DNA of 64,000 nucleotides, from the NCBI GenBank assembly GCA_930982035.1, contig CAKNJL010000001.1, positions 9,796 to 73,795 of the forward strand. Direction: 5' to 3'. Positions 52,953 to 64,000 of this stretch are shown piece after piece; the stretch's first letter is position 1, and each line of letters opens with the position of its first letter. A program made the translations under genes and the position numbers. The stretch is from an uncultured Clostridium sp. GTDB taxonomy: Bacteria; Bacillota; Clostridia; TANB77; CAG-508. The notes beneath the pieces were generated by a model. That model was not told where the DNA came from. It ran no database searches and saw nothing but the letters and a program-made list of their open reading frames with translations.

Positions 52953-53306
52953 TTATTCTTTTTTCCAAATCCTATTTATATTTTCCTGCTCTTTATCTTT
53001 TAAAGCCTTATATAAATCAATATCTAGTTTATTGCACACACTACATAATACAATAAAAACATCTGCTACTTCACTTTCTACTGTATCATAATGGTTAGCT
53101 TTATTTTTATCAATTCCCATATCTGTAGAATTTTTCCTTATAGATTTTGCTAATTCTCCAACTTCTTCTAATAGTAATAACATTGTTTTTTCCATTTCTT
53201 GATTTGAAAAACCTCTTATTTCTATTACATCTTTTATATATTGTTGTACTTCTTGCAATGTGTTTTCTTCATTTAATTTATTCCATAAATCTAATTGACT
53301 ATTCAT
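52953..53306 (-). CDS. MazG-like nucleotide pyrophosphohydrolase
   Basis: LLLEEVGELAKSIRK and ESEVADVFIVLCSVCNKLDIDL (EExxE / D motifs). Start placed at MNSQLD. The ORF track starts at 53354. Confidence 0.75.
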   Translation of the reverse strand: MNSQLDLWNKLNEENTLQEVQQYIKDVIEIRGFSNQEMEKTMLLLLEEVGELAKSIRKNSTDMGIDKNKANHYDTVESEVADVFIVLCSVCNKLDIDLYKALKDKEQENINRIWKKE

Positions 53307-53329
53307 TTTATTACTTCCTTCCCATTTTT

Positions 53330-53647
53330 CTATTTTGTTTCTTCTTCTATCCATTTTAAAAACTTTTCATTTCCATTTGTAATATCATAAGATATAATCT
53401 CACAAGTTTCGTAATCATGATTTTTTAATATTTCTTTTTCAACTTCTTTAAATAAAGTCTTTTTTGTTTTCATTTGAATAAAAAACTCTGGTTCTCTTTC
53501 AATTTTTCCTTTCCACCAATATGAACTATTTATATTTGTTACTTGGCAACAACAAACTAACCTTTTTTCCAACAATGTCTCCACTATATTATCTGCAATT
53601 TCTTTTTTATTACATGCTGTTGTAATTATGCAATATTCTTTTTTCAT
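53330..53647 (-). CDS. cutA: CutA1 divalent-cation tolerance protein
   Basis: 105 aa. IITTACNKKEIADNIVETLLEKRLVCCCQV...SYWWKGKIE...E pattern typical of CutA. Confidence 0.8.
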   Translation of the reverse strand: MKKEYCIITTACNKKEIADNIVETLLEKRLVCCCQVTNINSSYWWKGKIEREPEFFIQMKTKKTLFKEVEKEILKNHDYETCEIISYDITNGNEKFLKWIEEETK

Positions 53648-53896
53648 ATTCTCACACCTCTAACTTTCTATTCACACTATACCACAAATTTCAATTTTTT
53701 AATAGTTTTTTACTGATATTTATATAATTCTATACTTACCTTTATTATCACAGAATCCTCACATAAATGATGTCAAAAGCAAATAATAGTAAGTTTATTA
53801 TAGAACTATCATTTTTATGTATTTACAAAAAACTCTCTATATCTCATTTCTATCTTTTTAATAATGTTGTTTAATTTATTTCTGATTTTTAATTTT

Positions 53897-54090
53897 ATAA
53901 GTCAAAATCTTTGATTTTTTTGACCTATGGATTTTTTATAGAACGATTTTTCCAATTTTTTCGTTTTGTGAAATTTTATAGCACGGATTTTTCCATTTTT
54001 TCGTTCTATAAAAATTTATAGCACGGATTTTTTCAATTTTCCGTGCTATAAATTTTTTTAAAACGATTTTTTAATATTTTCCGTTTTATA
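53897..54090. repeat. five tandem roughly 40-bp palindromic units immediately after fic
   Basis: Units at 53897-53928, 53937-53970, 53977-54010, 54017-54050 and 54057-54090. The best unit is TATAGCACGG-attttttcaatttt-CCGTGCTATA. The stems differ between units (GTCAAA/TTTGAC, GAACGA/TCGTT, AAACG/CGTTT) while the loop stays A/T-rich and similar. Confidence 0.8.
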
Positions 54091-54094
54091 ATTT

Positions 54095-55231
54095 TTATTT
54101 TAAAAACAAATTGATATATTTTTGAAAAGCAAATACTTGATTTCTACTATATCCAGTTGTTTCTATAATAATATTCTTTTCTTTTAATGCATTAATACAT
54201 ACATTTAAAGTTGTTGGTTTTATATCTATTAACTCTAATATTTTCTTTCTTGAAACAATTGGTTCATCATACAATATATCTAATACTTTTTTAGCATTTT
54301 CTGGTTTTACTGGTAAATCCATTATAACCTTATCCATTTCCATTGTAAGTTCAACTACATTTCTAAATTTTTCTTTTGCAGTTTTTGATGTTTCTATAAC
54401 TGCTTCTAAGAAAAATTTAATCCAAGCTATCATATCATTATGAGTTCTTACTCTTGTTAGCATATCATAATATGTATCTTTATTTCTTTCAATGTAATCA
54501 GAAATATATAAACAAGACTTATCAAGCATTCCTTTGCTTTGAATATATAATGGTATAAGTAGTCTTCCTATTCTTCCATTGCCATCTAAAAAAGGATGTA
54601 TTGATTCAAACTGATAATGTAAAATTGCAATTTTTATTAAGTCTGGTGTATCTATTTCTTCATTATTTATAAATTTTTCAAAATCTGTTAAACATTCTGC
54701 AATTTCTGTATGTGGTGGTGGAACATATACTGCATTACTTGGCATACTTCCTCCAATCCAGTTTTGTGATGTTCTAAATTCTCCTGGTGTTTTATGTTCT
54801 CCACGAACTCCTTGCATTAATATTTTATGAAGTTCTCTTATTAATCTAGTACATACTGGAAACCCATTTTTTATTCTTTCTACACCATAGTTTGTAGCTT
54901 TTACATGATTTTGTACTTCTTCCCAATCATCTCTTTTTTCTGGGTTAATATCTGTTACATCTAATAAATCTTCTTCTACGGTCGTTCTTGTTCCTTCAAT
55001 TCTACTTGATTTATTAGCTTCAATTTTTACATGCATTTTAATATATAAATCTACATTTGGTATTAATAATGAATATGCATTTAACTCTCCAATTTGTCTG
55101 TTGGCTTCTGCTAATAGTTTGTCCAATTTAGTATCATCCCATCCCCAGTTATAGTTTATTTTACTAGGAATAAATGCTTTATAATCATTCATTTTCACAT
55201 ATTCACCTGATTTATAATCTTCTAACTTCAT
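54095..55231 (-). CDS. fic: Fic family protein (Fic_N + Fic + C-terminal wHTH)
   Basis: 378 aa. Fic motif HPFLDGNGRIGRLL. C-terminal wHTH-like ILELIDIKPTTLNVCINALKEKNII. Confidence 0.9.
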   Translation of the reverse strand: MKLEDYKSGEYVKMNDYKAFIPSKINYNWGWDDTKLDKLLAEANRQIGELNAYSLLIPNVDLYIKMHVKIEANKSSRIEGTRTTVEEDLLDVTDINPEKRDDWEEVQNHVKATNYGVERIKNGFPVCTRLIRELHKILMQGVRGEHKTPGEFRTSQNWIGGSMPSNAVYVPPPHTEIAECLTDFEKFINNEEIDTPDLIKIAILHYQFESIHPFLDGNGRIGRLLIPLYIQSKGMLDKSCLYISDYIERNKDTYYDMLTRVRTHNDMIAWIKFFLEAVIETSKTAKEKFRNVVELTMEMDKVIMDLPVKPENAKKVLDILYDEPIVSRKKILELIDIKPTTLNVCINALKEKNIIIETTGYSRNQVFAFQKYINLFLK

Positions 55232-55373
55232 TTATATCGCCTCCTACAAATTAAATTTTGGCTATTTTTGGTTGTTTTGTACGAACATTTGTATTGTATC
55301 ATATTTCTTAAATATATTCAATCTTTTTAACAAATTTTGTAAAAAATTTATTTAATATAGTGTTAAAAAAATA

Positions 55374-55407
55374 TATAGCACGGATTTTGTTAAATTTCCA
55401 TACTATA
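55374..55407. repeat. single degenerate copy of the TATAGCACGG palindrome
   Basis: TATAGCACGGattttgttaaattTCCATACTATA, followed on the minus strand by a T-run. Sits between the GNAT pseudogene and fic. Confidence 0.6.
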
Positions 55408-55462
55408 TATATTTATTATAATTTCCTAATTTTTTTATTTATATGTTCTAATTAACAAATTT

Positions 55463-55785
55463 TTAAATTTCCATTTGATAATGTATTTCTGTTTCTCCAT
55501 ATACTTTAAAGCCTAATTGTTCATATAACTTTTTAGCAGGATTCTCTTTAAATACCTTAAAATTGTTCTAATACCTTTTTCATAATTTTCTTCTAATTGT
55601 TCTTCTAAAATCTTTTTTCCTATTCCTTTATTTCGATATTTTTTTAATATACTTATTTCATTTATAAATTTTGCAAAAGCTTTTTCAAAATGTGTAACTA
55701 CTGCTACTTTAGGTAAATCAACTGTTCTTTTGGTATTTAATACTACAATAGGATTACTACCATAGCTTCCCAATGGTATATACAT
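55463..55785 (-). pseudogene. GNAT acetyltransferase with a C-terminal frameshift
   Basis: ORF 55513..55785 has YRNKGIGKKILEE. A shift of one nucleotide near 55550-55565 restores KVFKENPAKKLYEQLGFKVYGETEIHYQMEI, a canonical GNAT C-terminus. Confidence 0.65.
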
Positions 55786-55812
55786 TTTTTACTCCTTATA
55801 AAATTTGATTTT

Positions 55813-56673
55813 TTATATTTTTCTTTCTAAGTTATATTTTTTTATCCATTCAGTCACTCTATCATATTTCGTAATTAAAATATTTTTTAGATATTCTTCA
55901 AATTCACTATCTCTATTTATTTTTCCAGTTAACATTTTAGAATATATCCTAAAAGCATAAAATCTATTATATAATTGCCATTTTCCTTCAGATATTTCTA
56001 TATCATTTATGTATCTGTAACCATCTATTAAATTTTTAAAATCTTCATATTGATAAATTTCCTTTTGATTTAATAGATTTAACATCCTTGTAAAATCATA
56101 ATCTCTATCTCCAATGCACATACTCTCTAAGTCAAGCAAATAGTATTTTCCCTCTGAATATATTATGTTTTCTGGTCTAAGATCCCTATGTATAACTGCT
56201 AATTTTGAAACATTGATTTTTTCTAATTTTTGTTCTAAAACTCCTGTTGATATTTCAAAAATATTATTTTCCATTAGTCCTTTTGCTGATTCTTTTAACT
56301 CTAGATATTCTGACATCATGGCTTTCTTCCAATTAACTTTTTGTTTAATTGGGATATTGTGTAAATTTGCCATTAGTTTTCCTATATTATACAAATGTTC
56401 TTTTGCTTCTTCATCTTTTATTGCATTTCCTTTTATTTTTTCCATAATTATTATTTTTTGATTATATGTCCCTATAATTTTTGGAGTGCAATAATTTAAA
56501 TTCATAAGTTCTTTTAACCATTGTGATTCATTTTTAAATTTTTTTAAATCATTTATTTCTTTAAATATGTAACCTTTATATTCTCTTACTTCATTTATAT
56601 ATGAATTATATTTTCTTGCATTATTTATATTATTTTCATACTCTTTTATAATTTCTTCTATATTTTTCTTCAT
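55813..56673 (-). CDS. APH/choline-kinase-like phosphotransferase
   Basis: Catalytic loop VIHRDLRPENII and LLDLES (DFG-equivalent). Confidence 0.75.
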   Translation of the reverse strand: MKKNIEEIIKEYENNINNARKYNSYINEVREYKGYIFKEINDLKKFKNESQWLKELMNLNYCTPKIIGTYNQKIIIMEKIKGNAIKDEEAKEHLYNIGKLMANLHNIPIKQKVNWKKAMMSEYLELKESAKGLMENNIFEISTGVLEQKLEKINVSKLAVIHRDLRPENIIYSEGKYYLLDLESMCIGDRDYDFTRMLNLLNQKEIYQYEDFKNLIDGYRYINDIEISEGKWQLYNRFYAFRIYSKMLTGKINRDSEFEEYLKNILITKYDRVTEWIKKYNLERKI

Positions 56674-63077: not shown

Positions 63078-63110
63078 TATAGCACGGACTTATAAAATTT
63101 CCGTGCTATA
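63078..63110. repeat. single perfect copy of the TATAGCACGG palindrome
   Basis: TATAGCACGGacttataaaatttCCGTGCTATA, between the APH-like gene and the abiE promoter. Confidence 0.7.
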
Positions 63111-63245: not shown

Positions 63246-64000
63246 TTATTTTTTTAGAATTTCTATCATCTTATCCATTTGACTAACATTATATTTAATT
63301 TCTTCTATAGCCTGTACAATTTCACTTTCGGCTAACTCTATTTCCTCTTGTTTATAATCATTTTCTATACATAATGACCTTTTAAAATTATAATCTAACC
63401 ATCCAAGTCCACCGTAAATGTCTGCATATATTATTTTTTTAATATTAGTATCAGTTTCATTTTTAGAATTTTTTTTATAACTATTTACTACTATTTCAAA
63501 TTTATTATAATCTAAATTTTCTACATCTCCACCAGACCAATACCAAGCAACTTGTATTAATTCAATAGTTGGATTAATATACCCACTAGCTTCCCAATCT
63601 ATAATAAATGGTTTATATTCTTGCCAAATTACATTCTTTCTATCAAGGTCAGTATGACTAATAACTAAATTTTCATTAACATATTTAATTGCTTCATTTG
63701 ATTTTTTATTTAATTCATATAATAAATCAATATTTTTCTCTAAAATATTGAGGTAATCTTTGTTTTTTCTCTTTGCTAATTCTAAATATTTATTCCAGTC
63801 AAATTGTTCTATATTAATCTTTTTTCTCTCATTATCTTCAATTTCAGAAAAATCGATATTGTGAATTTTGGCTAGAATTTCTCCTACTATTTCACAATGT
63901 TTTTCTGTTATCTCTTCAGCTTTCAAGGTTTTACCTTCTATCCAATCAAATGCCATAAAATATCTATTATTTATTTTTCTCATAATATCATTGTTTTTTA
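63246..64000 (-). CDS. APH-family phosphotransferase, probably partial (runs off the window)
   Basis: HTDLDRKNVIW catalytic loop and IIDWEASGY. The frame stays open upstream of the annotated Met to position 64000, and the usual N-terminal ATP-binding lobe is missing from the window. Confidence 0.7.
   Translation of the reverse strand, partial: KNNDIMRKINNRYFMAFDWIEGKTLKAEEITEKHCEIVGEILAKIHNIDFSEIEDNERKKINIEQFDWNKYLELAKRKNKDYLNILEKNIDLLYELNKKSNEAIKYVNENLVISHTDLDRKNVIWQEYKPFIIDWEASGYINPTIELIQVAWYWSGGDVENLDYNKFEIVVNSYKKNSKNETDTNIKKIIYADIYGGLGWLDYNFKRSLCIENDYKQEEIELAESEIVQAIEEIKYNVSQMDKMIEILKK

Follow-up and report, generated by a model that had tools for sequence, protein, structure and literature searches.

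The 64,000-nt window analysed here carries a minus-strand fic gene whose open reading frame, stop codon included, occupies 54095–55231, so that array A, a row of five tandem 40-bp units at 53897–54090 (no strand assigned) recognised by sequence reading and Tandem Repeats Finder, ends 4 nt past the fic stop. The units lie at 53897–53930 (A1), 53937–53970 (A2), 53977–54010 (A3), 54017–54050 (A4) and 54057–54090 (A5), each comprising an arm of 9–10 bp, a spacer of 13–16 nt made up only of A and T, a complementary arm and a 6-bp A/T linker, much as the initial annotation had described them (five head-to-tail units of ~40 bp, with inverted arms of 9–10 bp around an A/T spacer); Tandem Repeats Finder returned a period of 40 bp and 4.0–4.1 copies across 53914–54098. 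The exclusion of a CRISPR array likewise stands, there being no unique spacers between units that abut through their 6-bp A/T linkers. The palindromy of the arms holds in part: inverted arms are present in A1–A5, but A4 is the sole perfect palindrome within array A (TATAGCACGG-N14-CCGTGCTATA; -14.7 kcal/mol as RNA), the arms of A2, A3 and A5 being hybrid or decayed. In the array as a whole, only about 1.5 units are of the GC class, which is the class matching the helix of the array's own Fic protein.

Two lone units, also without assigned strand, accompany the array in the window. The exact motif TATAGCACGG-N12-16-CCGTGCTATA has two matches in the window (at 54017 and 63078) and none in 100 shuffles, which confirms the reported perfect copy at 63078–63110 (U7), a unit of GC type lying between a kinase-like gene (stop at 63246, 135 nt away) and the abiEi promoter; an equivalent unit stands behind the orthologous kinase gene in loci L048 and L056, with different genes downstream. 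The degenerate copy noted at 55374–55407 (U6) is real, having been found again in an nhmmer census, and combines one GC-type arm with one decayed arm, 105 nt past the stop of a GNAT gene and about 55 bp upstream of the -35 box of a fic promoter predicted by consensus match only (TTGAAT, 17 nt, TG-TACAAT; 55293–55321, minus strand). The spacer of U6 is inverted relative to that of the equivalent upstream unit in L005 and L009, and in both of these loci the unit upstream of the fic promoter is of GC type, though their Fic proteins belong to the GGACG class. The further claim that all three loci follow gene stops applies closely to array A, at 4 nt, and loosely to U7 and U6, at 135 and 105 nt.

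The product of fic is a 378-aa class II Fic enzyme by Pfam and PDB alignment, comprising Fic_N (E 6e-22), Fic (E 1e-20) plus, at the C terminus, a winged helix-turn-helix (wHTH), with an HTH_24 match at residues 312–355. The translation contains HPFLDGNGR and the inhibitory sequence SSRIEG, in agreement with the patterns HPFx[D/E]GN[G/K]R and [S/T]xxxE[G/N], and residues 35–377 align with residues 31–363 of SoFic (PDB 9TCL, E 1.9e-36; PDB 3EQX, E 1.1e-34). As judged from these alignments, the protein is a full-length relative of SoFic, with a C-terminal wHTH homologous to that of SoFic. Codons 321–356 (54164–54271, minus strand), which encode the wHTH from helix 2 through the turn to the recognition helix, are hypervariable.

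Distribution and symmetry of the unit

The genome (2.16 Mb, 26.7% G+C) was scanned with an nhmmer profile run without filters and with a covariance model, and every unit was located on contig C1 at 63.7–77.1 kb, a 13.5-kb stretch containing array A, the two lone units and two further arrays just outside the window, array B (C1 about 74722–74922) and array C (C1 about 76880–77085), which flank a large serine recombinase gene. This stretch is part of two serine-recombinase elements that have inserted, one stacked on the other, at the rumA 3' end. Units are likewise found at one locus only in the complete genome of a related species; among 101 genomes of the family, the unit occurs in 22, from 19 of 50 genera, with one to four matches each at one locus (two in one case), and is absent from all three other genomes of the genus to which the genome studied here belongs. 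With all units of the genome confined to one 13.5-kb stretch, rather than standing at hundreds of 3' ends, and with one or two loci per family genome, a species-wide family of terminators or REP elements is rejected.

The REP/BIME-like cluster proposed in the initial annotation is not borne out by other measures either. The units do resemble enterobacterial REP/BIME sequences as imperfect palindromes of about 35–40 bp clustered behind gene ends; unlike those sequences, which number hundreds per genome and are associated with RAYT transposases, they show no genome-wide spread, and a check for such an association placed all seven Y1 transposase genes (Y1_Tnp) of the genome on other contigs, with no unit near any of them. 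The window and three loci were searched against Rfam, with no family matched.

Across 58 distinct units from this and related genomes, the arms pair in 91.9% of cells versus 81.8% in shuffles, eight of ten pairs have changed on both sides, and the covariation score was matched by none of 500 shuffles, in support of the earlier observation that both arms change together. Wobble-type mismatches are symmetric between the strands (33 versus 30), as expected of duplex DNA sites, and selection on the RNA of one strand is thereby discarded; the A/T (T) runs flanking the units are also symmetric on both strands in the 75 units counted, which removes U-tracts limited to the antisense strand from consideration. 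Copy number varies from 2 to 6.4 among the arrays of orthologues, hybrid and decayed units are common, and arrays are internally mixed.

The array as a conserved partner of fic

It is fic, and not the recombinase, that accompanies the array consistently. Where loci selected by their recombinase carry fic, the array lies straight behind the fic stop in 10 of 10, and L004, L007, L012, L016 and L017, which possess the recombinase and a gene for a ParB HTH domain protein, have no fic and no array. Among the 20 family-genome loci retrieved by a unit match only, fic or a 26–64-codon stump of its 3' end stands right before the units in nine and a rumA tail in two, with an intact recombinase in only one. 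A recombinase match was found in 0 of 80 fic-selected metagenome loci, within flanks of up to 2.5 kb. These 80 loci were pooled with the fic-carrying genome loci, and arrays were counted from Tandem Repeats Finder output (period 38–42 bp, start ≤90 bp from the stop) instead of by a strict automatic palindrome test, which undercounts arrays with imperfect arms. At Fic identities of at least 83%, an array was scored in 19 of 22 loci, the other three showing 2–3 units by eye or by nhmmer; the proportion was 6/6 at 60–83%, 3/6 at 51–59% (two more by eye) and 1/51 at 50% or below, with a control of the 300 bp upstream of fic giving 0/81. Of the 35 rows whose period is 39 or 40, 33 have a period of exactly 40.

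Distant orthologues retain the same build with unrelated arm sequences, as in L112 (58% Fic identity, directly upstream of enolase), with TTATCGTCA-N14-TGACGATAA; L114, with arms TTCCAGAATC/GATTTTGGAA; L118, with TTCCAA-N12-TTGGAA; L119, with CTATTTTAG-N14-CTAAAATA; and L120, with AAAGTAAAATA-N8-TATATTTTACTTT. Evolution has conserved the array alongside this Fic subfamily. Units of its family have also been identified away from fic, behind a displaced rumA tail or recombinase end (array B; L028, L029, L041, L051–L059, L064) and behind the kinase-like gene (U7), and arrays outlast deletion of fic down to a stump of 16–64 codons (array C, L083, L088, L091). A natural fic deletion is visible at L005 10560–10850, where the upstream unit is kept along with the promoter of fic and its first 11 codons (MKLEEYKSGE, stop), fused to an array unit, an arrangement suggesting that the array recombined with the upstream unit or with the start of the gene.

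Amino-acid variability among 19 full-length Fic orthologues of at least 83% identity peaks at residues about 325–355 (entropy 1.2–1.4 bits versus a protein mean of 0.27), and the last 22 residues are nearly invariant. Values of pN are 0.041 for codons 1–320, 0.263 for codons 321–356 (the HTH) and 0.048 for codons 357–378, with corresponding pS values of 0.44, 0.52 and 0.50; since pS is similar across the three regions, the excess amino-acid change does not represent imported old divergence. The helix-turn-helix is the sole fast-evolving part of Fic. One dominant arm class was found per helix class in 27 of the 27 loci that could be placed in six classes, helix KPTTLNV occurring with arm GCACG, KFTTLVGV with TTACG, (K/R)(P/S)STLKDT with GGACG, KLTT(I/V)NG with TCACG, KEGT(I/V)KN with GGTCAA, and MP(D/M)ST(V/L)NG with GAACG. 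On a tree of the remaining gene (nt 1–954), the helix classes are interspersed, well-supported branches forcing at least three changes each for TT, GG and GGTC, and the GC-class fic of the window is sister to a TT-class gene; helix and arms thus switch or move jointly on different backbones. The association could nonetheless be one of linkage alone, as helix and arms lie about 100 bp apart and the 3' block may be swapped whole by recombination.

Candidate operators for Fic dimers and competing explanations

Among the readings offered in the initial annotation, binding sites for the Fic wHTH are favoured over terminators and REP/BIME sequences, on the basis of the adjacency of fic and array, the match between helix and arm classes, and published DNA binding by SoFic and CccR. 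Fic dimers probably use the units as a tandem row of operators, one whose location downstream of the gene is unusual. Each 34-bp palindrome, of 10+14+10 bp, would constitute a putative operator for one dimer of the Fic encoded immediately upstream, and three to six such operators at a fixed 40-bp pitch would line up several dimers just beyond the fic stop. Enzymes of this kind are widespread, with about 1,800 proteins of the same domain order in InterPro, as stated in a report in which SoFic of Shewanella oneidensis is described as binding specifically, and only as a dimer, to the 100 bp that immediately precede its gene (bioRxiv 10.64898/2026.07.09.737422). CccR of Yersinia pseudotuberculosis represses its own promoter via a palindromic site, with a requirement for dimerisation and with DNA-binding heads about 70 Å apart (PMC9755527). 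It is from this dimer-dependent, sequence-specific binding to their own promoters, with a palindromic site in CccR, that we infer binding by the Fic of the window. In these two sources, binding to the protein's own promoter is demonstrated for two proteins, and the role of the Fic DNA-binding tail is left largely open (bioRxiv 10.64898/2026.07.09.737422; PMC9755527).

The Fic of the window shares with CccR and SoFic the same domain order of an N-terminal helix with the inhibitory motif, a Fic core and a C-terminal wHTH. With CccR it shares a palindromic site, putative here, the arms of a unit being 19–24 bp apart (65–82 Å, about two helical turns; 18–24 bp in distant arrays), compared with the separation of about 70 Å between the CccR heads. 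Unlike the sites of CccR and SoFic, which lie in their own promoters, the arrays lie behind the stop codon, with a single upstream unit in only some loci; no repeat array features in the available accounts of those proteins, whereas here a row of three to six units at a fixed 40-bp pitch begins a few bases past the stop. The recognition helix falls here, again unlike in CccR and SoFic, into discrete classes matched to arm classes, and binding is predicted from sequence. In the literature searched, no position behind the gene, tandem row at 40-bp pitch or set of matched specificity classes was found for Fic enzymes. 

If occupied, the array may, in the speculative consequence that we prefer, have two roles, one as a protein roadblock or insulator between fic and the downstream DNA, here formerly the recombinase operon, and the other as a local sink that keeps Fic as DNA-bound dimers and so couples the level or state of the enzyme to the presence of its own locus. 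A protein roadblock would reconcile the operator and terminator readings. Under the operator reading, the joint change of both arms would reflect switching of protein specificity and not hairpin selection, which also fits the absence of strand bias in wobble-type mismatches. Confidence in Fic binding is kept moderate, however, by the units situated away from fic, the GC-type upstream unit found with a GG-class Fic, the inverted spacer of U6, the mixed arrays and the arrays surviving the loss of fic. A further proposal, which we regard as rather improbable, is that the array is a DNA partner controlling a potentially toxic AMP-transferase, whose dimers would be kept harmless or regulated while sitting on the operators behind their own gene, such that loss or excision of the DNA would free Fic to modify a target such as EF-Tu, in a one-protein addiction or abortive module where the helix and arm classes would prevent cross-talk between co-resident copies; were this so, the specificity classes would work much like plasmid incompatibility groups. 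The locus offers a conserved, sequence-readable DNA partner for the Fic wHTH, a natural specificity table of six helix classes matched to six arm classes, and an unexpected position behind the gene. With these three features, what the wHTH reads, and why, is directly testable with short oligonucleotides and helix swaps, and they hint at a DNA-binding role beyond promoter repression.

An account of the units as nucleic-acid hairpins, that is, weak two-way terminators or stabilisers of RNA ends that punctuate the operons of the element and are repeated at places requiring strong insulation (past fic, before the recombinase operon and past the rumA stub), is unlikely, although it would accommodate the location of all copies in the genome between the end of a coding region and the next promoter, the covariation of the arms, the symmetric A/T runs flanking units on both strands, and the folding of A4, U6 and U7 at -11 to -15 kcal/mol ahead of AAUUUUU or UAUUUUUUU on the sense strand, U6 and U7 resembling weak terminators. 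The loops, however, measure 12–16 nt; a consensus terminator scan gave 0 sites in 53000–56000; on the sense strand, folding is minimal for three of array A's five units; the arrays of distant orthologues have no U-tract; and L098, L107 and L109 possess separate hairpins, read by eye, that resemble ordinary terminators 3' of their arrays. G-U-type mismatches show no strand bias, and the fixed 40-bp pitch and the tracking of the arms with a hypervariable helix are left unexplained. Together with the confinement of the units to one stretch and to 22 of 101 family genomes, these observations leave the terminator family put forward initially unsupported, and so correct the simplest reading of a repeat that annotation pipelines would ignore.

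Binding of the array by another protein of the mobile element, as plasmid-centromere-like sites or accessory sites for the serine recombinase, is distinctly improbable. The closest recombinase loci do feature a 246-aa ParB HTH domain protein (33.2 bits versus a cutoff of 22.6) encoded between array and recombinase, the recombinase gene is bracketed by two arrays in the genome studied here, and paralogues of the recombinase have a second, 42-bp array type with a parS-like palindrome before their operon; the ParB-HTH gene and the arrays nevertheless occur independently, the former without arrays in the five fic-less loci listed above (L004, L007, L012, L016 and L017) and the latter without the gene in the genome of the window, L015, L023 and L043. 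No ParA was seen in the loci read, the fic-selected metagenome loci have arrays with no recombinase match among the 80, and the units bear no relation to the crossover core CA(T/C)GTGGA(G/A)TG, which lies within the 3' end of rumA. The same core eliminates the units as recombinase attachment sites or cassette boundaries, as the two flanking arrays had suggested, and a search of the literature on recombinase-linked arrays found nothing relevant. In the F plasmid centromere sopC, a 43-bp direct repeat occurs twelve times, and the ParB-family protein SopB binds the 16-bp inverted repeat present in each copy. The present arrays resemble it in their tandem units of about 40 bp, each a single palindromic and putative protein site on a mobile element, but have no ParA/ParB partition pair, a ParB-HTH gene that does not co-occur with them, and an AMP-transferring enzyme as conserved partner. 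Still less probable is a functionless satellite, in which a fic-adjacent palindrome is amplified by slippage, kept symmetric via template switching at quasi-palindromes and carried along with the 3' end of fic; such an origin would suit the copy-number range of 2 to 6.4 among orthologues, the many hybrid and decayed units and the persistence of arrays after fic deletion, but hitch-hiking does not explain a position, pitch and palindromic build kept from 100% to about 50% Fic identity despite complete turnover of the arms, nor an amino-acid change focused in the recognition helix at unchanged synonymous divergence.

The recombinase island at rumA

Arrays B and C enclose the gene for a large serine recombinase of 620 aa, whose domains are Resolvase, Recombinase and Zn-ribbon. 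Loci cease to be homologous at a single point, which falls near codon 555 of the recombinase, at the crossover core given above, and the same core ends the 23S rRNA m5U methyltransferase gene rumA/rlmD (...PVDMFPFT, the break, then SHVECVAVLQLK). The rumA gene of the genome studied here (C1 98051 to 96707, minus strand) ends in FT, the break, then RTL and a stop, and the displaced tail, THVECMAVLQLKRDM and a stop, sits directly behind the recombinase at C1 75099, which indicates two elements stacked at rumA. The newer element (C1 96716 to 75090) runs through pemK, a 49-bp fic stump, array C and a ~110-nt non-coding element to the recombinase; the older (C1 75099 to about 63607) has, in order, the rumA tail, array B, a GNAT-kinase fusion and the kinase-like gene, then U7, abiEi/Eii, def, an ATPase, further genes and GNAT, and lastly U6, fic, array A and an 85-bp piece of the non-coding element. 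Array A belongs to the older element, whose recombinase module is lost, and the decayed 85-bp remnant of the ~110-nt element (53812–53894, minus strand) marks the site of that loss, the intact element lying between the fic array and the recombinase operon in relatives.

Such stacking at the rumA/rlmD 3' end, with each insertion leaving a displaced gene tail, recalls SCC-type composite islands and streptococcal rum-locus elements, in which a serine recombinase likewise inserts at the 3' end of a gene, a likeness that concerns the vehicle and not the array, the crossover core being unrelated to the units. Streptococcal integrating elements presumably target rum, to go by the names of their records; the nearest phage records carry the suffix '_rum', and only the catalytic part of the recombinase was matched in phage and plasmid collections.

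The ~110-nt non-coding element (L001 2954–3075, minus strand; C1 76749–76870) is present in about 70 copies in L002–L066, always co-oriented with a serine recombinase operon and 0.7–1.5 kb upstream of it. It consists of GGCAGGAAAG, hairpin 1, (G/C)TAAACACAT and hairpin 2, with no Rfam match and with compensatory changes between loci seen by eye in both hairpins (GAGATAC/GTATCTC versus GTGATGC/GCATCAC; TAGAAAA/TTTTCTA versus TTGAAGG/CCTTCAA), and may represent either a leader RNA or a DNA site connected with the recombinase. In the closest relatives (L009 8972–9929 and others), the ParB-HTH protein and a 74-aa protein are encoded between the non-coding element and the recombinase; in the genome studied here both genes are gone, removed by a 1.33-kb deletion flanked by direct repeats of 15 bp (ATACAGAGAAAATGCA) at L001 about 2958. 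The 61–74-aa homologue precedes nearly every recombinase of the family and is, on that ground, a candidate directionality factor.

The crossover core is internal both to the recombinase reading frame, at about codon 555, and to the 3' end of rumA (C1 75099, L001 about 1290; equivalent junctions in L002–L068), and the tail DNA past the core encodes a conserved C-terminal extension of ~55 aa in the recombinase frame (ILDFD..FE.KGRFGKEKHQNLGVKVKVVA, then a stop). Insertion into a naive rumA shortens the recombinase, as in L009, where the core contains a TGA and the protein has 561 aa, and stacking behind an older element restores the long form of 620 aa in the genome studied here, such that the integration state may change the recombinase. 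The second array type, of 40–42-bp units with the palindrome AGT(T/A)CACCAAGTGAACT and parS-like half-sites (L029 9353–9540; also L022, L024, L025, L031, L033, L039, L063 and L065), lies between the non-coding element and the 61-aa gene preceding recombinase paralogues of ~55% identity, and probably provides operators within the promoter that drives the recombinase operon.

The rumA/rlmD gene, which lies beyond the window, anchors a co-oriented island of at least 33 kb whose genes are of small-hydrolase, kinase, toxin-antitoxin and defence type (Nudix, MazG, HD, GNAT, APH-like, PemK, AbiE, Fic). Homology breakpoints had appeared ten-fold enriched at the units, a result with nothing specific to say about them, as a control found every gene end in the islands to be equally mosaic. 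Island genes are shuffled singly between genera, with fewer than 10% of locus-pair comparisons at gene ends staying collinear among the loci sampled.
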